Positions 10,012 to 51,132 of a stretch of DNA of 64,000 bases are shown here, in pieces (positions within the stretch are counted from its first letter, which is position 1; each line of letters opens with the position of its first letter). Made by a program: the position numbers and the translations under genes. The DNA comes from Bacteroidia bacterium (GTDB lineage Bacteria > Bacteroidota > Bacteroidia > NS11-12g > UBA9320), in contig CBDCFW010000006.1 in NCBI GenBank assembly GCA_965216465.1, positions 550,055-614,054 on the forward strand, read 5' to 3'. The notes under the pieces were generated by a model. It saw only the letters and a list, made by a program, of their open reading frames with translations, searched no databases and was not told the DNA's origin.

Positions 10012-11082
10012 ATGTTAGACAAGCTCGAGGCCATACATGCCCGGTATAAAGAGGTTGAATTGCTGCTAAGCAGTCCTGAAATTGCTTCGGATATGAAGAA
10101 GTTCACTAAACTTAACAAGGAGTATAGTGATTTGAAGCAAATTGATGAGAAGTATTTTGAATACAAAAACCTGCTCTCTAATTTGGCTGAAGCCAAGGAG
10201 ATGCTTGAAATGAGCGATGATCCTGAAATGAAGGAGCTTGCAAAGGAAGAATTCGAGAGCTTATCAGAAAAACAAGCACCCCTAGAAGAGGAAATCAAAA
10301 TTCTATTGATTCCCAAAGATCCTGAAGATGATAAAAACGCTATTCTAGAAATTCGTGCCGGTACTGGTGGAGACGAAGCAAGTTTGTTTGCTGGAGATCT
10401 TTACCGAATGTATGCCAAATACTTCGACCAGAAAGGGTGGAGATATGAGGTAATGGACACTACCGAAGGGACTGTCGGAGGATACAAGGAAATAATCTTG
10501 AAAATCGAAGGAACCGAAATCTTCGGTAACTTAAAGTATGAAGCCGGCGTTCATCGTGTTCAGCGTGTACCAGACACTGAAACTCAAGGAAGAGTTCATA
10601 CATCAGCGGCAACAGTTGCTGTGCTTCCTGAAGTTGAAGAGGTAGATGTTCAAATCAATCCTGCTGATATTGAAATGCAAACTTCAAGATCAGGAGGTGC
10701 TGGAGGTCAAAATGTAAACAAGGTTGAAACCAAGGTTCAGCTTACGCACAAACCGACCGGTATTGTTGTAGTATGTCAAATTGAGCGTTCTCAACTTGGC
10801 AATAGAGAAAGAGCTATGGAGATGTTGCGGGCTAAGCTTTACGACATTGAATTGGTGAAACGAAATGGAGACATTGCTGCTAAAAGAAAGACTATGGTTT
10901 CTACCGGAGACCGGTCGGCAAAAATCAGAACTTACAACTACCCTCAAGGAAGGGTAACAGATCACCGTATCAATCTGACACTCTACAATTTACCTGGAGT
11001 AATGAACGGCGATATCGACGAAATAATCAGCCAATTAAAAATGGCAGAAAATGCAGAAAAACTTAAGGTCGGAGGCTTATAA
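10012..11082 (+). CDS. prfA: Peptide chain release factor 1
   Basis: GGQ loop [16 protein letters not shown]1-type segment [15 protein letters not shown]. 356 aa. Confidence 0.95.
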
Positions 11083-39872: not shown

Positions 39873-40289
39873 ATGTCAAACATCACATTTACAATGATTA
39901 AGCCGGATGCAGTGTCAAAAGGCTACACAGGAAAAATCATCAACGATATTATTGAAGGAGGTTTTTCTATCAAAGCGATGAAGTATCTTCACCTTTCAAA
40001 AGATAAGGCTGAAGCGTTTTATGGTATCCACAGAGAAAGACCATTTTTCAATGACCTTGTTGAATACATGACATCTGGACCAATCGTTGCAGCTGTTCTT
40101 GGAAAAGATAATGCAGTTGCTGATTACAGAACTTTAATTGGAGCTACAAACCCAGCTGAAGCAGCTGAAGGAACAATCAGAAACAAGTACGCTGAGTCAA
40201 TTGAAGCAAATGCGGTTCACGGTTCTGACAGCGATGAGAACGCTAAAGGAGAAGCATCTTTCTTCTTCTCGGAATTTGAAATGTACTAA
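39873..40289 (+). CDS. ndk: Nucleoside-diphosphate kinase
   Basis: 138 aa. [10 protein letters not shown] start. Catalytic-His context NAVHGSDS. Confidence 0.97.
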
Positions 40290-40310
40290 GAGATTTTTTA
40301 ACTAAATATG

Positions 40311-40349
40311 AATGGGCTATTGACGTTTGTCGTTTTTAGCCCATTTTTT
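40311..40349 (+). terminator. Rho-independent terminator after ndk
   Basis: 9-bp perfect stem AATGGGCTA (40311-40319) / TAGCCCATT (40337-40345), then a T-run to 40349. Confidence 0.8.
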
Positions 40350-40403
40350 ATGGTTATTTATGTAGGCTCAACACAATTTTTCGTAATTTGAACCTTTATA
40401 TAT

Positions 40404-42488
40404 ATGATGATGTTCAGAAACAAACTATTTATACTATTACCTTTCGTTTTTATTGCTTTTGGATTTTACCTCAAGGCTCAAGACGAAGGCGAAGATATTT
40501 TACTCCGGGCGGTTAATGTTAGCCTTCAAAATGCACACTACGATCCCGTAAAAATAGATGACAATTTCTCTGAAAAAGGTTTCGACTTATATCTCGATAA
40601 CGTTGACCCTAATAAACGATTGTTTTTGAAATCAGATATTGAGGAGATGACCAAACACAAGTACCTTCTCGATGAACAAACGCGAAATGGCACCTATGAG
40701 TTTTTTGATCTTTCGTTAAACATCATCAATCAAAGAACTGCACAAACTGAAAAATTCTTCAATGAAATTTTAGCTCAGCCATTTGATTTTACACAAAATG
40801 AATCGGTTGATTTCAACGATAGTATGCCCTACGCTGCTTCAGAAGACGAATTGTTCAATAGATGGCACAAATATTTGAAATACAATGTGCTAACTCGTTT
40901 GCATTCTGACATCCTCGCACAAGAAAAAGCAGTTGAAAATAACGACTCTGGTTTTGTAGCTCAATCATTCGATTCACTTGAACGCAAGGCACGTAAAGGA
41001 GTGCTTAAAACTCATGTAGATTGGTACAAGCGTCTAAATCGTTTGGAGCGTAAAGATAGACTTGCCGTGTACATCAACAGTTTAACCACTGTTTACGATC
41101 CACATACGAACTACTTCCCTCCTGCAGATAAAGATAATTTCGATATTCAAATGTCAGGAAGGCTGGAAGGAATTGGAGCTCAACTTCAAGATAAAGATGG
41201 CTATATTAGAATTACACGAATTATTCCTGGTGGACCTTCATCATTGCAAGGAGATCTTAAAGCCAATGATTTAATATTGGCTGTTGCACAAGAAGACGAA
41301 GATCCTGTTGATATAGTAGATTGGCGAATTGATGATGCCGTTAAATTGATTCGAGGGAAAAAAGGAACTAAGGTTACACTAACCGTACGTAAGCCTGACG
41401 GGGCAGAACAAGATGTCACTATTACCAGAGACATTGTTGTACTTGAAGAAACCTACGCAAAATCGTTGATTATCAACGATGTAGATAATTTAAAGTCTGG
41501 ATATATCTTCCTTCCTAGCTTCTATGCAGACTTTAGAAATCCTGCAGGAAGATTTAGTTGGAAAGATGTTAAAGCAGAGGTTGAAAAACTAAAAGCTGCT
41601 GGAGTACAAGGCATTATTCTAGACTTAAGAAACAATGGGGGCGGTTCACTCGATGATGTAGTGAAAATGGCCGGATTGTTTATCGACGAAGGACCAATTG
41701 TACAAGTAAAAGAAAAAGGTAGAAAAGCTCATGTGCTCGAAGATCGTAGATCTGGAGCTGAATGGGAAGGAGCACTGGTAATCATGGTTAATGAATTTAG
41801 TGCTTCTGCTTCTGAGATTATGGCTGCTGCAATGCAAGACTATAATCGAGCAGTAATCATTGGATCGTCTTCTACACATGGTAAAGGCACCGTTCAACGC
41901 TTTTTACCTCTTAATCAGACGCTGAGAAGTAAAAACATCCCAGATTTAGGAAGTGTAAAATTAACTATCCAAAAGTTCTATAGAATTAATGGCGATGCCA
42001 CCCAACTTAAAGGTGTAAGCTCAGATGTTCTGTTGCCTGACAACTACATGTACTTGGAAACAGGTGAAAAAGAGCACGATTACCCCATGGAGTGGGATCA
42101 AATCTCAAGCTCAAGCTACGATAGTAGAGGCTATAGCGTACCAAACAGAGTAATTAAAAAGAGTAAGGCAAGAGTTTCTGCAAATGAAACATTCAAGCTC
42201 ATAGAAGAAAATGCTCAACGTTGGGAAGCTCAAAGAGAATCAACTTCTTACTCACTTAACTTCGAAGAGTATAAGTCTAATGAAGCAAAAGAAAAGGAAG
42301 AAGGAGAAAAATATAAGGCCATAGGAAAAGAACCTATTCCTGATTTCACTGTGGTTAATGTTCCTAGTGATGAAGAAGAGATCAACAAAGAAGAATCTCG
42401 TAAAAAAAGAAATGAAGAATGGATTAAAGGAGTACAAAAAGATCCTTACATCTATGAGGCTCTTCAAATCATTGAAGACTGGAATTAA
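40404..42488 (+). CDS. S41 family carboxy-terminal processing peptidase
   Basis: 694 aa. Signal anchor, PDZ-like region (ITRIIPGGPSSLQG). S41 catalytic motifs NNGGGSL, SASASEI, HGKGTVQ. Confidence 0.88.
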   Translation: MMMFRNKLFILLPFVFIAFGFYLKAQDEGEDILLRAVNVSLQNAHYDPVKIDDNFSEKGFDLYLDNVDPNKRLFLKSDIEEMTKHKYLLDEQTRNGTYEFFDLSLNIINQRTAQTEKFFNEILAQPFDFTQNESVDFNDSMPYAASEDELFNRWHKYLKYNVLTRLHSDILAQEKAVENNDSGFVAQSFDSLERKARKGVLKTHVDWYKRLNRLERKDRLAVYINSLTTVYDPHTNYFPPADKDNFDIQMSGRLEGIGAQLQDKDGYIRITRIIPGGPSSLQGDLKANDLILAVAQEDEDPVDIVDWRIDDAVKLIRGKKGTKVTLTVRKPDGAEQDVTITRDIVVLEETYAKSLIINDVDNLKSGYIFLPSFYADFRNPAGRFSWKDVKAEVEKLKAAGVQGIILDLRNNGGGSLDDVVKMAGLFIDEGPIVQVKEKGRKAHVLEDRRSGAEWEGALVIMVNEFSASASEIMAAAMQDYNRAVIIGSSSTHGKGTVQRFLPLNQTLRSKNIPDLGSVKLTIQKFYRINGDATQLKGVSSDVLLPDNYMYLETGEKEHDYPMEWDQISSSSYDSRGYSVPNRVIKKSKARVSANETFKLIEENAQRWEAQRESTSYSLNFEEYKSNEAKEKEEGEKYKAIGKEPIPDFTVVNVPSDEEEINKEESRKKRNEEWIKGVQKDPYIYEALQIIEDWN

Positions 42489-42512
42489 TTCTCAACTAAA
42501 ATATTGAAGCCC

Positions 42513-42544
42513 CCCCAAAGCTTTGGGGATGGGAGGACCTTTTT
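42513..42544 (+). terminator. Hairpin/terminator after the S41 peptidase gene
   Basis: Perfect 16-nt palindrome CCCCAAAGCTTTGGGG (42513-42528) preceded by extra Cs. The T5 run (42540-42544) is 11 nt downstream, so the geometry is imperfect. Confidence 0.5.
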
Positions 42545-42621
42545 GTATCTGGTCATTTCAGTTATAACGATTATAAATTCACTTTTCTCGTTTGCATCAC
42601 GTGAATTTTCAAGGGTTTGAT

Positions 42622-42629
42622 TAAATTTG
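42622..42629 (+). promoter_or_regulatory. -7 box TAAATTTG for the uncharacterised AAA+ operon
   Basis: Exact TAnnTTTG match with 25 nt separating it from the ATG at 42655. No good -33 TTTG at consensus spacing. The palindrome TCACGTGA sits at 42597-42604. Confidence 0.45.
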
Positions 42630-42654
42630 GGCAACTAATATTTTAAAACAAACT

Positions 42655-44019
42655 ATGTCAGATTCCTTTGATTTACTTGACCAACTAGGGGACCAAGAAA
42701 AAGTAGAAGCTCTAAAAGCAAAAATTGAAAAAAAGACCAGCACAGATATCTCGTCTAAGCTGGACAAAATTGAACAAGAAATAGAAAAAGCAGTTGAAGA
42801 AAATCGCTCAACTGAAGATATCGTTTCGGGCATTATCAATGCCAATTTTGAAACATTAAATGGAGATGTAAATGCTACTGAAGCTGATCTTCAAGAATTG
42901 ATGCTCCACCTGAGATCGATGCTCGATAGTTGTGGGGGTGAATTTGCCAACTTACAAGAGTTGAATGATTCAGAATTAAAACTTATTGATAAGGCGACTA
43001 AAGCTCGTGAAGTTGCTGAAAAAGAAGCTAGCGATGCAGAGTCGATGTCAAATGCATGGAATATCCTGTTTGGGTACAAGAACCGCAAGGTAAAAGCCAC
43101 AAAAACCGATCTTACTAAAAAAATTGAGTTGTTAAAAGCTGCTGAAGCAGAGGCCCAAAGAAGATATCGTGAGCGTTTAAAAAATGCGGATATTGGTGAA
43201 AGTTTAAATCGAATCATTAGCCAAGTTCAAGGCATGGTTGGCATCGTAGAAAACATGATTGTTGATGTTGATGGCCAAATCGGTGCGTTGAAAAATCGTA
43301 AAGAGCTTGCATTCGATACCAAAGAGAAAGCAGCTCGAATAATGGAAGAGCGTAAAACAGACCTGGATGATGTTGAAGTTAAACTCAAAAGTGCTGAAGC
43401 CGAGTTAACAGAGTTAGCCAATAACAGCCCTGAGTACACCGAGCAAGAAAAGAAGATTGCAGATCTTAAAGAGATGCGTGCGAACCTTAAAGGTAAATTC
43501 AATATTGCTTTGGGTATTTTCCAGTCTAAAGAAAGATTCGTTGATCAAATTGTGGTTCACTTAGAAGCACAAACTACAACTAAGAATAACCTGAAACAAT
43601 TAATTGGACAACTGAAGAGTGACACCGAAGAAAGGGTTACAACTTACGAATCAGGCTTACAGCTTATCCAATCAGCAACTGCACAAGAAGCCGCTTCAAT
43701 GTATGAAGAAGCAGGGGTTAAAACCGATCAGAAGATTACTGAAATTGCGGCTAAAGTTCTTGTTGGTTCTGAAAAAGATAGAATTGAGCGTGTGAAGAAA
43801 CATCCTCAAAGAATGACTGAATTGCATAAGGTTCTTGTTGCCATGGCTGAAGCTACCGCAAAATATAAGGAAGAGGATGCAAAGCTAATGGAGGAACACA
43901 GCAAAAAATTTGGAATTAATGTAACTGAAACATTCTCTTCAAGCTACGAAGGCAAGGCAGATACGCCAACTGAAGAGTCAAAAGGAAATGACAACTCTGT
44001 AGATAATTTAATGGATTAA
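42655..44019 (+). CDS. Hypothetical soluble all-helical/coiled-coil protein (operon gene A)
   Basis: 454 aa. K/E/A/L-rich heptad-like stretches (EKVEALKAKIEKK; KIELLKAAEAEAQRRYRERLK; VEVKLKSAEAELTELAN). No TM, signal peptide or catalytic motif. Its length and helical layout are vaguely TelA/YaaN-like, but I cannot verify this. Confidence 0.6.
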   Translation: MSDSFDLLDQLGDQEKVEALKAKIEKKTSTDISSKLDKIEQEIEKAVEENRSTEDIVSGIINANFETLNGDVNATEADLQELMLHLRSMLDSCGGEFANLQELNDSELKLIDKATKAREVAEKEASDAESMSNAWNILFGYKNRKVKATKTDLTKKIELLKAAEAEAQRRYRERLKNADIGESLNRIISQVQGMVGIVENMIVDVDGQIGALKNRKELAFDTKEKAARIMEERKTDLDDVEVKLKSAEAELTELANNSPEYTEQEKKIADLKEMRANLKGKFNIALGIFQSKERFVDQIVVHLEAQTTTKNNLKQLIGQLKSDTEERVTTYESGLQLIQSATAQEAASMYEEAGVKTDQKITEIAAKVLVGSEKDRIERVKKHPQRMTELHKVLVAMAEATAKYKEEDAKLMEEHSKKFGINVTETFSSSYEGKADTPTEESKGNDNSVDNLMD

Positions 44020-44033
44020 CGCAGAGCATATAG

Positions 44034-45131
44034 GTGAAACCAATTGACATAAATAATCATTTTACGTCCTTAGACCGAAGTGTCTTGGACGGAGAAAATG
44101 CCTATACTGCCTATTTCGGATATGTAAAAAATGCCTTAGATATTCTCTTAAGCTCATTTAACAGAATTCCAAGTCATAATCCTTTAGAGGTGGTTATGCT
44201 TAAGAAGTTTGCTCAAAAATTCTTGCATACCATTGAAGCCTTTCGGTTGAAGTATAACTTCGACGAGAATCAATCGATGTTGGTTGATTTAACGGAAAGT
44301 AGTTTTCCTAATTTCTTAGAATTTAAACGGTTACAAGATGACTTGCACAAACGTGAGGCTCAGCTGAAGTCACTTCCGAACAAGGACACATTAAAGCAGA
44401 ATATTTTAGATGCACTAATTCGAAATCATAAAGATCCGAATCGACTGCTTCAGCAGCTGAGTAAACGCAACTATTATTCGAGTTTAGAAATACATAAACT
44501 GTTTTTTGAGTTTACTCCTGGTAAAATTGAGTTAATCAAACAGCACGATGATAAAGAAGAAACAAGAACCTACTTTTATTCTTGGGCTTCTTTTGACAGT
44601 GTTACCAACAAACCTTATGTATACACAATGGTGTTTGACAATCCAACCAACACCAAGCATAGCGGTGGCGACATCAAGCGAGACCATGACTTTATCGAGG
44701 TCATAAAACGATGTACACACAACAGCGCACCGCTAAAAGTGGTTGCATCAGATATTGATAATTCATACGAGAATATCTACCCAAAAGTGCTTAAACGAAT
44801 TGAGTTGGGTCCAATTTATGGGAAGTATAGCCAAGACAAACATCCCTTTACGCTTATGCTTCGAAATCATTTTTCGGAAGAAGATTTCATTTTAACCTAT
44901 CAAACCGAAATTGTTTTCTCGGTAGGTCAAAAGCGAACTTCCTCATTTCTATCGAAGGGTGAATTGAGACAAGTATTTCATGTTGACGAGTCAAATAAAG
45001 ACTGCATGGAAAAAATGATATCTCAACTCGACAAATATATGATTACCTCGCATCGCGTACTGCAATACATTAACGATACTCAGCCAGAGGCATTAAAAGA
45101 ACTTACTGTTCCTGCCTACGTATATAATTGA
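44034..45131 (+). CDS. Hypothetical protein (operon gene B)
   Basis: 365 aa. GTG start 14 nt after the gene A stop. Soluble. No recognised motif. Confidence 0.55.
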   Translation: MKPIDINNHFTSLDRSVLDGENAYTAYFGYVKNALDILLSSFNRIPSHNPLEVVMLKKFAQKFLHTIEAFRLKYNFDENQSMLVDLTESSFPNFLEFKRLQDDLHKREAQLKSLPNKDTLKQNILDALIRNHKDPNRLLQQLSKRNYYSSLEIHKLFFEFTPGKIELIKQHDDKEETRTYFYSWASFDSVTNKPYVYTMVFDNPTNTKHSGGDIKRDHDFIEVIKRCTHNSAPLKVVASDIDNSYENIYPKVLKRIELGPIYGKYSQDKHPFTLMLRNHFSEEDFILTYQTEIVFSVGQKRTSSFLSKGELRQVFHVDESNKDCMEKMISQLDKYMITSHRVLQYINDTQPEALKELTVPAYVYN

Positions 45132-45132
45132 T

Positions 45133-47094
45133 ATGGAAAAACAAGAATCATCATTACTCAAAATAAAAGAAGAAGACTTATTAGAATATAAGGATGAAGT
45201 AACGGGATACCTCAAAACGGTAAGCTGGAAACCCGATCATAAAAACTCGAATCAAAGTATTGATTTGAATTTTTTAAGTGATGTAACAAAGGCTCTCGAT
45301 ATTCAGAAAGAAGATGAGATTTCGATTATGAAAGCCGCAATTCGCATTAGCAATGACCGGGTAATCCTTTCAAACCAATCGAACCACGTACTTAATGCCA
45401 TTCGAACGGGGTTTTGTATTGGTAAATATGTTGCCTCGCTCTATTCTGATACCAGCGGATTAGAATTGCTGCATCAAAAGAATGTAAGTGGTTCGCTCCA
45501 CCAATCTGAATTGCCTGAATTTCATGATAAGAGTCAAACACAGTCGGCTATTTTACTGTATAGTGCTGCCTCTTATATCAAATTTACATTGCAGGACTAT
45601 CTGGCAGATGAAGTGTCGTCTATTCAAATCGACTTCGGGGGAATTCCTCAAGTAAGTTTAACACGACCAACAAAGGCCATCAAGTGTGCTTTGTATTACT
45701 ATGCGGCATACCTTGAAAAGTCAGGAATTGTAAAAACTGATCTACACTTCATAAAAATGACCTTGCTCTATTTCGAGCGGTTAATGGAAGAGATTCAGCT
45801 TCGTAAGAATGCGTTAAAATACACGACCGTATTTTCTGATAATCACTACAAACTTGAGAATTCTGAGTTTGTAATTCAAGGGTTTGAACAAGCCTCTTTA
45901 GCAAGTGTTAAAGGAATGCAATTCAATCCAATCAGAATGGAGCAAATTGTATCGAACAAACAAGCTAAGCACATGTTTAAGCGCTATGCGGATCGATTAA
46001 TGTGCTTTGACTTTGAGGCGAAGAAAAATCCGATGAATGAATTGGGAGGACTTCCTTCAATCACTATGGCAGATGGTAAGCCAGGTACAGGAAAAAGTAT
46101 GCTTATCGCGGCAACAGCAACCTTACTGCAGGAACGATGCGATCAGCTTGGTCACAACTTTTTATTTTGGCCTCTTCCTGAAAATATTGTTTCTACTTTT
46201 CAAGGTGGAACTGCAGAAAGAGCCATGGAATGGTTTAAACCCATGCAGGACACCAACAAAATTGTATTTGCACCTATCGACGACGCCGAAAACAATCTTG
46301 AAGAAAGAACCAGACAAGGAGTTTCGGCTGGTGTTAGGGAATTTATCGGAGTGTTTTTAAGGAATACAGAAGGGGCTTACGCAGTAAACAATGGAAACCG
46401 ATTAATCAGCTTGTTCACTAACATCCCAGACCAAATTGATAAAGCTGTACTCTCCAGAATCCAAATGAGAATCTCGATGGAAGGTGCATCAGATAAGTAC
46501 GACTTTATTGACCAAGACTACCTCTGGTGGAATAAATATGCTCAACTCGATCAGAATTTCATTGACAATACCGATCCTTCGAGTTATACCTACATGGAAG
46601 CTCAAAAATCTGTTAATTCAATTAACGATTTACTCAGCGACAAGTACAAATTCACCAATGATAAGGTAAAAGACATTTACAAGGATTGCTTAGATGATGT
46701 AGATATCAATTCGCATGAATTTTTTGGTGTTTTTTACAGTGAGATTTTAAAGCAATATCCATTTTTCTCTTCTCGTGACCTTCGAAACATTCAGAAGGCT
46801 GTTGATGCTCGATTGATCGATTTTGATTTGCCAGAAGTGTGGTGGGAGAATCACGATGATTTCTTTAACAAAAATTATGACGACAAGTTGGTCATTCTTA
46901 AAGAACTGATGAAGGAAAACATGAAAGGAGCATCGTTTAGTCAAGTTCGCGTATTTGAAGCATTGAACTACATCGAAAATGCCATACGAATTAATGAAAC
47001 TGGCATAAATAGAGACATCAAAGAGCGTGCGAAACAGATGTATATTCAAGAACAAGCAAGTAAAAAGTTAAGAAGCGGAGAGATACATGATTAA
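45133..47094 (+). CDS. Classical-clade AAA+ ATPase with ~300-aa unknown N-terminal domain (operon gene C)
   Basis: ATG 1 nt after the gene B stop. Walker A GKPGTGKS (46075-46098). Walker B-like IVFAPIDDAE (46261-46290). Sensor-1/second-region-of-homology LFTNIPDQIDKAVLSRIQMRI (46411-46473), which parallels the TNxPxxLDxAxxRRF pattern of FtsH/Vps4/katanin-type AAA. Confidence 0.85.
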   Translation: MEKQESSLLKIKEEDLLEYKDEVTGYLKTVSWKPDHKNSNQSIDLNFLSDVTKALDIQKEDEISIMKAAIRISNDRVILSNQSNHVLNAIRTGFCIGKYVASLYSDTSGLELLHQKNVSGSLHQSELPEFHDKSQTQSAILLYSAASYIKFTLQDYLADEVSSIQIDFGGIPQVSLTRPTKAIKCALYYYAAYLEKSGIVKTDLHFIKMTLLYFERLMEEIQLRKNALKYTTVFSDNHYKLENSEFVIQGFEQASLASVKGMQFNPIRMEQIVSNKQAKHMFKRYADRLMCFDFEAKKNPMNELGGLPSITMADGKPGTGKSMLIAATATLLQERCDQLGHNFLFWPLPENIVSTFQGGTAERAMEWFKPMQDTNKIVFAPIDDAENNLEERTRQGVSAGVREFIGVFLRNTEGAYAVNNGNRLISLFTNIPDQIDKAVLSRIQMRISMEGASDKYDFIDQDYLWWNKYAQLDQNFIDNTDPSSYTYMEAQKSVNSINDLLSDKYKFTNDKVKDIYKDCLDDVDINSHEFFGVFYSEILKQYPFFSSRDLRNIQKAVDARLIDFDLPEVWWENHDDFFNKNYDDKLVILKELMKENMKGASFSQVRVFEALNYIENAIRINETGINRDIKERAKQMYIQEQASKKLRSGEIHD

Positions 47095-48193
47095 GCTTGT
47101 ACAAAACGGACTTTTTGGTAACAACCTGTATTCGGTTGATAGTCCTCCTATGGTTAAACGATACAATGAATGCTTGGAGGATATTGGTTTACAAAAAACG
47201 AAGCTTAAAAAGTTTCATATTGATGGCTGGGGATGGAGCCCAGAAATAGCTGAAGAGCAAAAAAATCGATTCTATTTGTCACATGGCTTAGCCAATCCAT
47301 TTGGGGTCATAATTTCACCTAAGCAGCAAAACGCTCCAATCTACATGCCGTTTCATAGCTTCGACCGAGAAATTCATAAATACATTTTTAAAACATATAG
47401 TCAACAGATTGAAGATATCACAGCCACTTGTGGATTGTGGTTCGAATTGGATCAAGAAATCTCAGCCTACCGTTCACCTCAAGATTTGTTAATGGTAGAT
47501 TATATCAATGTCAATTTCTATTCGGTAGATCGAATCATGACTGCGGCAAGAGAACAAAGAGCATTGATTAGAGAGTTTCATGATGTGCCTCAAGCTTGGT
47601 CAAACGATGAATTGAGATTGAAGATTATAGAAAGCAGTCAAAAATATGGGGATCTTAGGTTCCGAAAATTTGAAATCCCAAAGGTTCCGTTTAGTGCGGT
47701 AGAAAATTATTATACCCTAGGATTTAACGGGTTATACATTCTCAAAGGAAAGGGAAATGAGAAACCACTTTTAATCTTTAAAGATAACAGCTCAAAAGTT
47801 TCAGGTCAATTGGATAATTCGCACATTGAATTTAACATAGACGACCCTGGACTTTTAAGTTATTTATACAATAAATCGTTGATTTCCAACGATATTGACT
47901 TGTTTACAGATCACCCTAGCTTGATTGAAATCATGAAAGATTTCTTTCTCGTTAAGGCGGCTGTTGAACATAACGAAAAGGTTGAATTTAAAGACTTAAA
48001 TACAGTACAAAAGAAGGGTTTGGTTAACAGAATGTTACAAGAAGAACTACTGTCTGATGTTTACTTCGAATTGGAACGCTTGCTAAGTGCGTTGCAAAAG
48101 CAAGAGCAATTGGACCGATACATAACAAGCGAAACATTGCAACCTTATTTGTTGCATCCTCACCCTAGTTTATCAACCCAAGAAAGCGGGTAA
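47087..48193 (+). CDS. Hypothetical protein (operon gene D), possibly frameshifted near its 3' end
   Basis: 368 aa. Its ATG overlaps the ATPase stop (ATGATTAA). No recognised motif. A protein-like frame continues in the -1 frame from 48190 to 48360. Confidence 0.55.
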   Translation: MIKLVQNGLFGNNLYSVDSPPMVKRYNECLEDIGLQKTKLKKFHIDGWGWSPEIAEEQKNRFYLSHGLANPFGVIISPKQQNAPIYMPFHSFDREIHKYIFKTYSQQIEDITATCGLWFELDQEISAYRSPQDLLMVDYINVNFYSVDRIMTAAREQRALIREFHDVPQAWSNDELRLKIIESSQKYGDLRFRKFEIPKVPFSAVENYYTLGFNGLYILKGKGNEKPLLIFKDNSSKVSGQLDNSHIEFNIDDPGLLSYLYNKSLISNDIDLFTDHPSLIEIMKDFFLVKAAVEHNEKVEFKDLNTVQKKGLVNRMLQEELLSDVYFELERLLSALQKQEQLDRYITSETLQPYLLHPHPSLSTQESG

Positions 48194-48231
48194 TTTGGCA
48201 CTTGTTGTGTAACATCAATGCACATTCACCA

Positions 48232-48360
48232 ATGCTTACGTACTTGTTCGACAAACCTTCTTTCTACACCGCATATACTTCATGGCCGAAACAAGTACAG
48301 GTTTGGATCATTGAAAATATACTTCGACACAAAGAAATTTATAACGACTTAATGAACTAA
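48232..48360 (+). CDS. Unannotated 42-codon ORF, or the displaced C-terminal 56 codons (from 48190) of gene D
   Basis: Below the ORF-track cutoff. The frame is open from 48169 to 48360 and reads ...VIWHLLCNINAHSPMLTYLFDKPSFYTAYTSWPKQVQVWIIENILRHKEIYNDLMN. The stop TAA (48358-48360) is 2 nt before the next ATG (48363). Confidence 0.35.
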   Translation: MLTYLFDKPSFYTAYTSWPKQVQVWIIENILRHKEIYNDLMN

Positions 48361-48362
48361 TC

Positions 48363-48770
48363 ATGGATATTTTAATTTCACTCTTAATTGGATTTGCACT
48401 TGGTATTGTTTTCTTCATCTGGGATAACAAGAAAGGTAAAAAATGGCATCGTAGGTGGTATGACCTAAGTCACAAAACACCTTTGGCTGAAGATTCAGAG
48501 GATAGCTTTATTGTTAATCAGCCCTTCTCTAAGAAATTGATTCCGGCAGTGATTATTACCATTCTGTTTAGTTACGTGACATGGTCATTTGGTGACATCA
48601 ATCCAATTCTGGCGATAATTTCTTCCTTAATTATGCTGGTAGCTGTACTGATTGGGTTTTATGTTGGTCCATTCATGAGCAGAACTGTACCTAAAGGTTT
48701 AAATGAAGCAAACAAAACATTAAAAAAAGCTGGATGCGTTGGAGCAAGATATACTTCAAGACCAACCTGA
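48363..48770 (+). CDS. Small 3-TM membrane protein (operon gene E); the frame probably continues to 48864 across an A7 run
   Basis: TM segments ILISLLIGFALGIVFFIW, LIPAVIITILFSYVTWSF, ILAIISSLIMLVAVLIGFYVGPF. The +1 frame opens exactly inside A7 (48722-48728) and encodes a 46-aa charged tail ending 3 nt before the next ATG. Confidence 0.6.
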   Translation: MDILISLLIGFALGIVFFIWDNKKGKKWHRRWYDLSHKTPLAEDSEDSFIVNQPFSKKLIPAVIITILFSYVTWSFGDINPILAIISSLIMLVAVLIGFYVGPFMSRTVPKGLNEANKTLKKAGCVGARYTSRPT

Positions 48771-48867
48771 AAAAGAGGTCATTGAAATTAAGCCTAAGGA
48801 CGAAAATGAGCCCAAAAAAGATGATGATTGGAGAAAAGGAGTTAAAGACTTTTTAGATAAGTAAACT

Positions 48868-50457
48868 ATGGAACAAGCAGAAGAGTCAAGAAGCAGGATT
48901 TATTGGGTCCTTCATAACCTCCGCAAACGACTTGGGGGATTTATAAAACGTGCATTTAAGAATAGACCAATACTTAGCATCATTATATCCTTGGTTTTAG
49001 TTTATATGGTGTTTGTAAGCAGGGGCAGTTTTCAACCAGGCTTTCTATTCCTAAGAAAATATTACTTGCTTGTTTTAGTCATTCTTTTGATCTTTTATTG
49101 GTTTGTTAAAACATGGGAAAGGCGAGAAACTAGAGGTAAAATCATAACAACGGTTCTCATGCTGTTGGTAGCAACTGGCAGCTATTTTTATGGTGCTGGA
49201 GTATATCGTTATGTTAGCTTGTACTTTCATTACTCTCAAATTAATAAGGTCGAGCTAGATGAATTTCCCGAGACAGCTTTTGAGCGCATTCAGCCCATTA
49301 ACTCTGTTCGAACATTAATCAATCAGGAAGGTCTTTCGGAAACAGAAGATGCTACTTTGCCTCGATTTGTGAGAGGTAGCGACAATGAATATTATTTCAC
49401 CTGCGCGGTTGGACCTTCTCAGGAATACAAAGTACAACAGATGACCAAAAACATGTATGAGGTCATTCATATTCCAGCTGATTTGCCCGCTCCGGTGTTT
49501 TCAAAAAAATATCGAGAAGAAGTCAATTTTGATGTTGGAGAACTCTTACTTTTCAGCAAGAAAACTAAGTATGCAGTGGTAAAGAAATTTAACCTTCTGC
49601 AGTACTTTAATTATGAGATTGGATCTCCTATTTATGTGCCCAGCCAAGACAAAGGATGGTTGCAAGTTGTTCCACTTATTCGATGGAAGGGAGTTCTATT
49701 TCCTCGTCCTGTGTTTGGCGGGGTGATGGTAATCGATGAAACGACATCAGAAGACAACTTTATGATGCGTATTCTATTTGGTGAAGGTCAATACTATACT
49801 CCTACTGAAATTCATAACATAGATGGCCTGCATGGGCAAAATTTGATCCCTGAAAAAGTGGCCAAGTTCACAGCGGAGAGCTTCCGCTTTACAAATGGTT
49901 TTTTTGCTCCTTTACCTATGTATCACGAAGGTGATATACGTATTCCATCGCTGCCTAATGACGTTGATCCTCAACCATTTACAGCATTTTTTAATATTAA
50001 AAATGATGAGAAGCTGTATAACTTCTTTGGACTAGAACCCTATCAAGAAAACAAGAAAGGATTGAGTTTAAGTCTCTTTATTCCTGGAGATGATGACAGC
50101 AAAGTATATTTTATAGACCACCGAAAATCGAACTTGTCTTACATCGGAAGCAGTGCAATTTCTGCTAAGATTATTGAAAGTAAAAAGAACTACGACTGGA
50201 CTAAAAACTACCCAGCTGAAAGCAGACCATTTATTCGAAATGTGGAAGGAAAATCACGGTTATTCTGGTTAAGCACAATTGTTACCAAGGCAGGTGAAAA
50301 TACTGGTGATTACATTGGAGGTAGTATCCCAGAAATTACCTTAACCGATGCCGTGCACGGTAAAGTTGTCTGGATCAACTCTGATTCGCTAATTCAAAAT
50401 GATTCATGGATCAGACAAGCCCAAAGTGAATTACACAATTATTGGGAAAATGAATAA
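48868..50457 (+). CDS. Membrane-anchored protein, 3 N-terminal TM helices plus ~400-aa domain (operon gene F)
   Basis: 529 aa. Basic N-terminus (RKRLGGFIKRAFKNR), then PILSIIISLVLVYMVFV, YYLLVLVILLIFYWFV, IITTVLMLLVATGSYFYGAGVY. The rest is soluble with no recognised motif. Positive-inside topology predicts a periplasmic domain. Confidence 0.6.
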   Translation: MEQAEESRSRIYWVLHNLRKRLGGFIKRAFKNRPILSIIISLVLVYMVFVSRGSFQPGFLFLRKYYLLVLVILLIFYWFVKTWERRETRGKIITTVLMLLVATGSYFYGAGVYRYVSLYFHYSQINKVELDEFPETAFERIQPINSVRTLINQEGLSETEDATLPRFVRGSDNEYYFTCAVGPSQEYKVQQMTKNMYEVIHIPADLPAPVFSKKYREEVNFDVGELLLFSKKTKYAVVKKFNLLQYFNYEIGSPIYVPSQDKGWLQVVPLIRWKGVLFPRPVFGGVMVIDETTSEDNFMMRILFGEGQYYTPTEIHNIDGLHGQNLIPEKVAKFTAESFRFTNGFFAPLPMYHEGDIRIPSLPNDVDPQPFTAFFNIKNDEKLYNFFGLEPYQENKKGLSLSLFIPGDDDSKVYFIDHRKSNLSYIGSSAISAKIIESKKNYDWTKNYPAESRPFIRNVEGKSRLFWLSTIVTKAGENTGDYIGGSIPEITLTDAVHGKVVWINSDSLIQNDSWIRQAQSELHNYWENE

Positions 50458-51132
50458 TTAGGCAGGTTCGCAGCATTCCATCTGCTCTTTTTCTGCATTG
50501 AAATCTGGGCTGATATAAGGAATACCTAAGCCTGCTGATCTTACTACTAGCATCAACCCTACAAAAAGTAGAAGTTTGGGTGTATGCTTGTTAAGCTTTT
50601 GCATTATGCCTGCTTTACCAAATTGCGGCAAGTACGATATGGCCAACAAAATAGGTAAGGTTCCCAAACCAAAAAGAATCATGTACAGTGACACATTGAG
50701 TGCACTTCCTGCATTGACTGAAAGAATTGCAGCACCAAAGGATAAGCCACATGGTAAAAGGCCGTTCAGTACCCCTAAAAATAAACTTCCCGTTCTGCCA
50801 GGATTGGTTTTTAGCATTCTGTTTGAAACCACTTTAGTTATCTTTTCAATTAGGCGATTAACCGGTTTGATGTAACCTTTTAAGGCATAGAGAATCAGCA
50901 ATACTCCACTGGCTAAGCCGACATATTGTTGCATTTCAAAAACTTGAAGCGGAGATACTAAAAAATAGAAGAATATGGCCAAGGCTATGTATCCAATCCA
51001 TCTACCAAGATGGTGAACCAGCAATGAAAACAGTGAATATTGTCGTGCCCCTAATCCTAACATAAATGGACCACACATCGCAGCGCAATGCAAGCTTCCT
51101 AATAGACCAAGTATGAAGGCTGACCACATCAT
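50458..51132 (-). CDS. TauE/SafE-like (DsbD_2-like) membrane protein, last gene of the cco cluster
   Basis: 224 aa, polytopic. N-terminal GSLHCAAMCGPF motif. 4-nt overlap with the fixH-like gene. Its stop abuts the stop of gene F (TAATTA). Confidence 0.6.
   Translation of the reverse strand: MMWSAFILGLLGSLHCAAMCGPFMLGLGARQYSLFSLLVHHLGRWIGYIALAIFFYFLVSPLQVFEMQQYVGLASGVLLILYALKGYIKPVNRLIEKITKVVSNRMLKTNPGRTGSLFLGVLNGLLPCGLSFGAAILSVNAGSALNVSLYMILFGLGTLPILLAISYLPQFGKAGIMQKLNKHTPKLLLFVGLMLVVRSAGLGIPYISPDFNAEKEQMECCEPA

Follow-up and report, generated by a model that had tools for sequence, protein, structure and literature searches.

A conserved gene core around a divergent classical AAA+ ATPase, often followed by a pair of membrane proteins, in Bacteroidota and other phyla

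Introduction

What might an operon do when the core of an AAA+ ATPase is the one part of it that can be recognized on reading? The question is raised by six genes, here called A to F, on one strand of a 64,000-nucleotide (nt) stretch of DNA from a Bacteroidia bacterium (NS11-12g; UBA9320; assembly GCA_965216465.1, contig CBDCFW010000006.1, positions 550,055 to 614,054), which we call the window. A first-pass annotation made from the letters alone had seen a self-contained operon of an AAA+ ATPase (C), a long coiled-coil protein (A), two further soluble proteins (B and D) and two membrane proteins (E and F), and had offered a membrane-associated remodelling or stress machine as a working hypothesis. 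All six open reading frames (ORFs) were recovered with exactly the coordinates and lengths given there. In the list below, the two shifted segments are continuations of D and E that were located by tblastn with intact proteins from L004, the locus of the closest relative.

42655-44019, plus strand: A, ORF of 454 amino acids (aa)
44034-45131, plus strand: B, ORF of 365 aa with a GTG start
45133-47094, plus strand: C, ORF of 653 aa
47087-48193, plus strand: main part of D, ORF of 368 aa as read in the window
48181..48360, plus strand: C-terminal ~58 residues of D in a shifted frame (tblastn with intact L004 D)
48363-48770, plus strand: main part of E, ORF of 135 aa
48724..48864, plus strand: C-terminal tail of E in a shifted frame (tblastn with intact L004 E)
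48868-50457, plus strand: F, ORF of 529 aa

The genes are closely packed, with 14 nt between A and B, 1 nt between B and C and an 8-nt overlap of C and D; once the frames are bridged, 2 nt separate D from E and 3 nt separate E from F. These are the junctions that had been annotated. Here we ask whether the six genes form a unit in other genomes, what their products resemble, and how the locus compares with known AAA+ systems. Our answer is that the operon is chromosomally resident and encodes a previously undescribed AAA+ machine for ATP-driven protein remodelling, a reading that we hold to be about evenly balanced between right and wrong, with the roles of the single components much less certain.

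Results

Four soluble proteins are encoded as a unit in a fixed order

A scan for C with one genome per GTDB species found a relative encoded in at least 535 species. The best 80 loci of these were fetched and 83 loci in all were analysed, by BLAST and profile mapping followed by unsupervised clustering of every ORF. Six families recurred: C in all 83 loci, D in 80, B in 78, A in 72, E in 68 and F in 66, and the next real ORF family reached 21 of the 83. Where a locus had room upstream, A and B were both present in 67 of 69 cases; where there was room downstream, D was found in 69 of 70 and F in 63 of 70, as was the pair of E and F (63 of 70). The order was always A-B-C-D-E-F, with gene spacing of 30 nt or less in about half of the loci. 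The genes thus co-occur across genomes, as expected if the annotated operon is one functional unit.

Carriers of the cluster include metagenome-assembled genomes (MAGs) of Bacteroidota, Desulfonema magnum, Desulfuromonadales, Trueperaceae and Opitutaceae, and among cultured Flavobacteriaceae the genera Kordia, Lacinutrix, Tenacibaculum, Polaribacter, Winogradskyella and Algibacter. Proteobacterial versions can be read from existing annotations. In Vibrio vulnificus the order is a hypothetical protein (359 aa), a second hypothetical protein (371 aa), an ATP-binding protein (634 aa) and a 'DUF6638 family protein' (412 aa). In Sinorhizobium meliloti it is hypothetical (362 aa), hypothetical (382 aa), ATP-binding (638 aa), an insertion sequence (IS), hypothetical (429 aa) and a DUF2333 protein (407 aa). 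The S. meliloti 429-aa protein matches PF20343, the family of D, at an expect value (E) of 8e-76. The D protein of S. meliloti 1021 is UniProt Q92N41. In profile alignment with hhalign, the S. meliloti 382-aa and Vibrio 371-aa proteins match B with 99.8% probability, while those of 362 aa (S. meliloti) and 359 aa (Vibrio) align with the profile of A, at E 2e-15 and 1e-18, respectively. An internal signature of A, LKSDTEERV-TY, reads LTIDTEQRIVLY in the S. meliloti protein and LTTDTEHRTVLY in that of Vibrio. An A-B-C-D core is therefore found in S. meliloti, Rhizobium leguminosarum, V. vulnificus, Desulfonema and Trueperaceae, and this soluble core is a unit inherited in fixed order across at least five phyla.

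The membrane pair behaves differently. E and F follow the core in Bacteroidota, Desulfuromonadales, Opitutaceae and others, and do not adjoin it in Vibrio, Desulfonema, Trueperaceae, Sinorhizobium or R. leguminosarum. A-B-C-D is the invariant part, and E/F is a frequent, dispensable add-on. In S. meliloti a DUF2333 protein with two transmembrane (TM) segments follows D; as a candidate homologue of F it was rejected, at a probability of 1.6%.

Several single loci add to this picture. A sigma-70-type gene stands directly after the A-D core in two lineages without E/F: in R. leguminosarum pRlX5 it encodes a full RpoD-like protein (L089:8503-10539), and in Desulfonema magnum a 346-aa ORF with a region-4 match (L043:13692-14732). 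Two loci from Flavobacteriales MAGs, L028 and L029, hold C-D-E-F, but A and B are both missing from the 10 kb and ~4.4 kb upstream, respectively, so the cluster can be split. In a contig binned as Saccharospirillaceae (Gammaproteobacteria; L019), C is 63% identical to the Bacteroidota protein and D, E and F are missing despite room downstream; in one binned as Candidatus Saccharibacteria (L049), C is 43% identical to the Bacteroidota protein. Both are probably mis-binned contigs. On a Logan metagenome contig a TLC-family ATP/ADP translocase adjoins the cluster (L002:13615-15243), which suggests that the module is also kept by a host-associated, energy-parasitic bacterium. Finally, a DNA fragment bound by ChvI, F9, lies within the S. 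meliloti gene SMc02733 (PMC3687685). By locus-tag order SMc02733 may be one of the A-C genes, a mapping that is unconfirmed and that we do not use as evidence; if it is right, the envelope-stress regulator ExoS/ChvI might control the module.

C is a divergent member of the classical AAA clade

C had been called a classical AAA+ ATPase, and both its profile match and its motifs uphold this. Residues 315-448 match PF00004 at E 1e-8 and 36.1 bits (cutoff 21.2), and the same model scores 41.8 bits in the S. meliloti homologue and 50.1 bits in that of Vibrio. The protein consists of a ~300-aa N-domain, a single AAA core at ~308-450 and a C-terminal extension. In an alignment of 12 diverse homologues, G315, P317, G318, T319, G320, K321 and S322 of the Walker A motif (GKPGTGKS, 315-322) are invariant, as are the sensor-1 residues T429 and N430 (TN, 429-430) and the arginines R442 and R446. 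An invariant pore loop, TFQGG (355-359), aligns with KYIG of Rpt4. At the Walker B site an invariant D383-D384 stands where Rpt4 has DE, and an invariant glutamate, E386, lies two residues on (PIDDAENN). C thus keeps the residues that are needed to bind nucleotide, to sense neighbouring subunits through arginines and to form an aromatic pore loop, together with an atypical Walker B.

The nearest sequences in the PDB are Rpt4, Vps4, CdvC-like proteins, Cdc48-D2, VAT, Yme1 and spastin, at E 0.005-1.6, with Rpt4 the best match of the AAA core (E 0.005) and scoring above Vps4; a PDB search with the C family profile gave nothing at E<=0.001. With solved relatives this distant, C is a branch of the classical clade that has diverged very far. 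Its N-domain has no MIT or other N-domain match at E<=1 in Pfam, a comparison of sequence only, and the C-terminal extension has no match. There are more than 100 full-length homologues of ~653 aa (43-79% identity), annotated merely as 'AAA family ATPase' or 'hypothetical'.

A is a helical protein with conserved ends

By composition and heptad scan, A is soluble, helical and rich in Glu and Lys, with three prolines and several heptad-like stretches. It opens with MSDSFDLL (Bacteroidota consensus M-[SA]-D-[SD]-F-D-L-L), carries the internal signature given above and closes in an acidic low-complexity tail that ends DNLMD; across Bacteroidota the protein ends ...[DN][DN]L[LM]x after a variable acidic tail. 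The description of A as a long coiled coil holds for the helical, heptad-like stretches but passes over these conserved polar and terminal peptide motifs. A PDB profile search with A gave keratin and coiled-coil noise, with nothing significant.

A helical protein with short conserved terminal peptides on disordered tails, encoded beside a classical AAA+ ATPase, recalls membrane remodelling by Vps4 with ESCRT-III or with PspA. A would then be a cryptic polymer on the inner membrane with termini resembling MIT-interacting motifs, C a Vps4-like disassemblase, and E/F would seed the polymer or hold it in place. The nearest solved AAA modules of C do include those of Vps4 and archaeal CdvC-like proteins, membrane partners are present in most lineages, and other bacterial associations of PspA/Snf7 with AAA+ proteins are known (PMC11237479). 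However, neither A, 31 further members of its family nor C matches the PspA_IM30, Snf7 or MIT models of Pfam, and the A profile aligns with E. coli PspA at a probability of 1.5% (hhalign). Rpt4 outscores Vps4 as a match of C, the operons catalogued in PMC11237479 and PMC10936438 have other partners, B and D are without counterpart in ESCRT or phage-shock-protein (PSP) systems, and the core occurs without membrane proteins in several lineages. We therefore regard an ESCRT-III-like or PspA-like role as improbable.

B and D adopt folds without a match

The first-pass annotation had recognized no family outside the AAA+ core of C. This stands for A, B, E and F but not for D, which belongs to Pfam family PF20343 (DUF6638). 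D matches positions 2-328 of the 439-position profile (E 2.4e-32, 112.8 bits, cutoff 27), and its frame-shifted tail covers the remainder of the model. Searched against 1.84 billion representative proteins, the D profile found 495 clusters, and among the best 150 of these most are stand-alone proteins of ~400-450 aa. DUF6638 is a catalogue entry to which no function is attached, and full-text literature searches for DUF6638 and PF20343 returned zero papers.

An AlphaFold2 model of a D-family protein (P0121, 430 aa) reached a mean predicted local distance difference test (pLDDT) of 94.7 and a predicted template-modelling score (pTM) of 0.90, and predicts an alpha/beta N-terminal half with a helical C-terminal half. 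The model of B (pLDDT 87.4, pTM 0.86) predicts a soluble protein with a helical N-terminal region and a C-terminal antiparallel beta-sheet domain. Foldseek found no match for the D-family model in the PDB (best E 0.67) and none for B (best E 0.23 in the PDB and 0.011 in BFVD, probability <=0.16), with TM-scores of ~0.1 in both comparisons; PDB sequence-profile searches with B and D gave nothing significant. The 66 homologues of B are all named 'hypothetical' and none has a Pfam match. Hidden paralogy among B, D and the N-domain of C was also considered and rejected, as pairwise comparisons show none of them to be related.

Both proteins contain many invariant polar residues: E52, K73, D85, S89, D103, N192, D242, K254, R255, E292 and H340 in B, and R25, Y26, N27, D46, S51, Y63, Q80 and D189 in D. 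It is tempting to speculate that B and/or D, perhaps with the periplasmic domain of F, are enzymes of new fold in a pathway for which C is the activase or assembly factor and A the scaffold. CbbX and MoxR-type ATPases mature or reactivate client proteins in this manner. The compact, globular and confidently predicted folds of B and D agree with such a role, as do their invariant residues and a NUDIX gene found between C and D in ~12 Flavobacteriaceae loci. Yet the searches turned up neither a catalytic motif nor a known enzyme fold, the clustering of the 83 loci showed no consistently linked transporter, substrate-binding or metabolic gene, and C has the aromatic pore loop that is typical of threading unfoldases. 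An enzyme pathway is accordingly an unlikely explanation in our view, and we prefer B and D as partners of a remodelling ATPase.

The NUDIX hydrolase gene (e.g. L055:11922-12524) is one of several unrelated genes that lie between C and D in Flavobacteriaceae, the others encoding an amidohydrolase, an S26 peptidase and an AraC/TPR regulator. In Pseudomonas fluorescens a DUF2333 gene is reported to adjoin a NUDIX gene (PMC5256989). The parallel with the DUF2333 gene that follows D in S. meliloti may be coincidence, or may hint at a nucleotide-derived ligand.

E and F are membrane proteins, and two frames are broken in the window

E and F had been described as having three TM segments each, F with an additional domain of ~400 aa; our analysis agrees and places both in the inner membrane. 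TM segments of E lie at residues 1-19, 59-77 and 82-100, and by the positive-inside rule the loop at 20-58 and the tail are cytoplasmic. Once its frame is repaired, E ends in the conserved peptide DDDWRKGVKDFLDK; the Pro/Glu/Lys linker varies among homologues, whereas the motif that follows it, DWRKGVxDFLDK, is conserved. It has no family match above noise, the XpaC-family model PF10112 staying below significance at E 0.052. In F, a basic N-terminus on the cytoplasmic side is followed by TM segments (35-53, 58-76 and 92-110) and then by an extracytoplasmic domain of 419 residues, in which many Pro, Gly and Trp positions are invariant; there was no consistent Pfam match in 25 members and no PDB profile match at E<=1.

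The two frame breaks noted in D and E are real, as tblastn with the intact homologues of L004 demonstrates. L004 D (423 aa) aligns with frame +3 until 48187 and then with another frame at 48181-48354, where its residues 366-423 are 48% identical (E 3e-17). The break lies at ~48181-48187, within GAAAGCGGG, and the shifted ORF (48202-48360) stops 2 nt before the ATG of E. L004 E (171 aa) aligns with 48363-48728 and then with 48724-48861; here the break falls in an A7 run at 48721-48727, and the shifted ORF (48739-48864) stops 3 nt before the ATG of F. Because the intact L004 proteins continue in another frame, each break is a single-base indel in a homopolymer run. Programmed frameshifting was considered and rejected, because the genes of relatives are in frame.

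The breaks reflect either an assembly error or early decay of the present copy. Were the operon decaying in this genome, the breaks would be real mutations and the copy non-functional or partly functional. They do cut off conserved ends, namely the W/Y/K/F-rich last ~55 residues of D and the end-peptide of E, and among the 16 genes over which L004 is syntenic with the window (~21 kb), D and E alone are broken. On the other hand, single-base indels in homopolymers are a typical long-read assembly error, the source contig is 1.3 Mb long, the shifted fragments remain 48-50% identical to L004 with no further stops, and two events in ~21 kb are too few to tell error from mutation. We consider decay possible but doubtful.

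The module is resident rather than mobile

The annotated operon had been taken for a resident chromosomal module, and the wider comparison sustains this. Its gene order is syntenic with L004 over ~21 kb among housekeeping flanks, GC content is flat over the region (0.36-0.40), a tRNA scan of the region found none and a repeat search found no meaningful flanking repeat. D was absent from 50,697 phage genomes and from the viral contigs of IMG/VR. Among 72,556 plasmid-database records, tblastn with C matched 10, and a separate tblastn with D matched these 10 again. They come from Vibrio, Sinorhizobium, Shinella and Rhizobium, each is a non-mobilizable replicon, and their sizes run from 0.88 to 4.6 Mb; no mobilizable plasmid in that set carried either gene. 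The S. meliloti D sequence is present on more than 500 contigs and therefore behaves as a core gene there. The flat GC, the absence of tRNA genes and repeats, and the lack of phage, viral and mobilizable-plasmid matches led us to reject mobile-element cargo.

These data also bear on whether the locus is an uncatalogued anti-phage or conflict system, with the AAA+ protein as sensor or effector motor and the membrane proteins as abortive-infection effectors. Its spread over distant phyla is patchy, C being ~44% identical between Bacteroidota and Desulfobacterota/Deinococcota loci; the Vibrio copies are on large accessory replicons only; two genomes have IS elements within the cluster; and in PADLOC-DB v2, where A, B, D, E and F are without a match, C alone matches IetA weakly (E 0.0027), in the generic AAA region. 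Beyond that generic similarity, however, no PADLOC model was found, in accord with the earlier statement that this is not a named defence system. The flanks are housekeeping genes and syntenic between relatives, D behaves as a core gene in S. meliloti, and phages, IMG/VR viral contigs and mobilizable plasmids contained none. The sequences are highly conserved and lack any nuclease, protease or toxin domain. A role in defence seems very improbable to us, and a resident cellular machine remains our preferred reading.

The IS elements lie between C and D in two unrelated genomes (L003/L020, ~10160-10980; L085, 10920-12665). A Chitinophagales MAG has an IS200-type Y1 transposase there, and S. meliloti Ak57 has ISRm16 with an endonuclease-domain gene; insertion at the C-D junction may be tolerated or preferred. 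L085 (CP090106.1) was deposited as the 3.7-Mb 'plasmid pSymB' of S. meliloti Ak57. With tdk, fhs and genes for a choline ABC transporter and a heme receptor, it looks like the chromosome and was probably mislabelled on deposit.

Boundaries and neighbouring genes

Two signals were read upstream of A.

42622..42629, plus strand: candidate Bacteroidota-type -7 promoter box, TAAATTTG, read directly, ~25 nt upstream of the ATG of A
42510..42544, plus strand: GC-rich stem, CCCCAAAG/CTTTGGGG, with a T-run, downstream of the S41 peptidase gene, at the boundary of the unit

The position of the -7 box is as annotated, and a TAnnTTTG box occurs at the equivalent position upstream of A in most of 10 related loci. 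The stem had been described as a hairpin ending the S41-peptidase gene. It does exist, but its minimum free energy (-12.9 kcal/mol for 42510-42533) has a z-score of 0.10 against shuffled sequence, and a terminator scan of the window does not list it at 42510-42544. Because it folds no better than shuffles, we place little weight on this hairpin, and the case for a terminator is weak. Downstream, the stop of F at 50457 abuts the stop of the convergent minus-strand gene 50458-51132, the stop-to-stop junction that had been reported; this gene opens a cco accessory cluster with CcoG-, FixH- and CcoP-like ORFs.

Upstream (39873-42488) are genes for a nucleoside-diphosphate kinase (NDK) and a 694-aa S41-family peptidase, a synteny that is kept in L004, L014 and L037 and lost in more distant lineages. 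Flanks vary by lineage, from an esterase with DUF349, a TLC translocase or a GH2 gene to the NDK, S41 peptidase and cco genes of the window. A functional tie of the operon to the cco cluster or the S41 peptidase was rejected for this reason. Antisense ORFs of 74-108 aa inside A and C (42621-43502 and 46747-47055, minus strand) recur in homologous loci; these 'shadow' ORFs are most likely a by-product of codon composition and not genes.

Discussion

A model for an AAA+ machine with dedicated partners

We propose a model where C forms a hexameric ring that would spend ATP on unfolding a substrate protein, extracting it or taking it apart. A may be the substrate or scaffold, or else an arm that recruits the substrate, a suggestion that follows from the peptide motifs that are conserved at its two termini and sit on disordered linkers. 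Dedicated cofactors or adaptors would be the role of B and D, with an enzymatic role also possible. Where E and F are present, the conserved cytoplasmic end-peptide of E may dock the soluble complex at the inner membrane, and F may link the docked complex with some periplasmic or envelope component. Our data are compatible with the membrane-associated remodelling or stress machine first suggested for this locus.

In a broader context, we judge it somewhat better than an even bet that with A-B-C-D we have the first example of an ancient and widely dispersed AAA+ machine not described before, one that has obligatory partners of its own, two of them with folds lacking a solved relative, that is wired to the envelope through E/F in Bacteroidota and several other phyla, and that is not a variant of ESCRT, PSP, the proteasome or a defence system. 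Several points weigh against the proposed model. The insertions between C and D in Flavobacteriaceae mean that tight translational coupling is not universal. In Vibrio, Desulfonema, one Trueperaceae genome and R. leguminosarum no membrane protein adjoins the core, and membrane tethering is therefore not intrinsic to it. The DD at the Walker B site may make hydrolysis by C slow or reliant on E386. The many invariant polar residues of B and D would suit enzymes as well as adaptors. Lastly, A, E, F and the N-domain of C were compared through their sequences alone, and a remote link to a known family is possible.

To our knowledge, the classical-clade AAA+ machines of bacteria are few, with FtsH, Cdc48-like, Mpa/ARC and rare Vps4-like proteins among them, and every one of these defines a major process. 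Conserved operons without known function are not rare in themselves, and a further classical AAA+ family would suggest that a process has so far been missed, probably where the inner membrane faces the cytoplasm. If true, this would be a new piece of bacterial cell biology. The module extends from marine Flavobacteriia to rhizobia and Vibrio, C being joined by three soluble partners that are obligatory and often by the membrane pair, and its carriers include the genetically tractable Sinorhizobium meliloti, Rhizobium leguminosarum and Vibrio as well as cultured Kordia, Tenacibaculum, Polaribacter and Lacinutrix. Small soluble proteins with confident models among its parts also make it accessible to experiment. 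The module would add B and F, and probably A and E too, as new protein families, as no Pfam, NCBIfam, PADLOC or PHROGs model matched them.

Comparison with known systems

The catalogued parts of the module are PF00004 for the core of C and the function-less PF20343 for D, and nothing else. A, B, E and F gave nothing significant in Pfam, NCBIfam, PADLOC, PHROGs or PDB sequences, and Pfam scans of every member of the A, B and F families returned scattered sub-threshold matches to DUF4199, CofC, HBL and SipB. The profile searches, with Foldseek on the B and D models, thus place none of A, B, D, E and F in a characterized family. We rate the system as new because full-text searches for DUF6638/PF20343 give no paper and because the partner features sought from known systems were not found; the obligatory linkage of D to A, B and C is in no paper found by the searches made.

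Some systems set aside at first pass find no support in family models either. E, F and 25 F members have no GldL or GldM match in Pfam or NCBIfam, as would mark type IX secretion and gliding. TelA (PF05816) and TerD are likewise unmatched, by A at E<=1 and by 31 members at E<=0.01, which sets the locus apart from Ter/TelA operons.

Vps4/CdvC with ESCRT-III (CdvB, Snf7) resembles the module in its single-module classical AAA+, its adjacent helical partner with terminal peptides and its association with membranes. Unlike Vps4, C lacks an MIT domain and has a ~300-aa N-domain and a DD Walker B, A lacks a Snf7/PspA signature, and the module has two extra obligatory proteins, B and D. CdvA and ESCRT-I/II are unrelated to the E/F pair.

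The unfoldases Rpt, PAN, VAT/Cdc48 and Mpa/ARC share with C an aromatic pore loop, the arginines of the second region of homology and dedicated cofactors. In contrast to Rpt/Cdc48-type unfoldases, the module has no protease, Pup/ubiquitin-like, Dop/PafA or double-psi-barrel N-domain signature in Pfam. C also differs from Cdc48-type unfoldases by its single AAA module, and sequence similarity is marginal.

PSP (PspA-PspBC-PspF) and Lia (LiaI-LiaH) systems likewise bring together, at a single locus, an AAA+ protein, a helical protein that is soluble and a small membrane anchor. However, PspF is a sigma-54 enhancer-binding AAA+ whereas C is a classical AAA, A is not detectably PspA, and E has no PspB, PspC or LiaI match. 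Psp had been dismissed at first pass as well, and Pfam and NCBIfam models of PspA, PspB/PspC and PspF indeed find nothing in A, C or E. The gene set of the module is not among the PSP contexts of PMC11237479.

A further likeness is to DUF6638 (PF20343) itself, of which D is a clear member and whose name the D proteins of S. meliloti and Vibrio already bear. Through this locus DUF6638 gains a defined genomic partnership.

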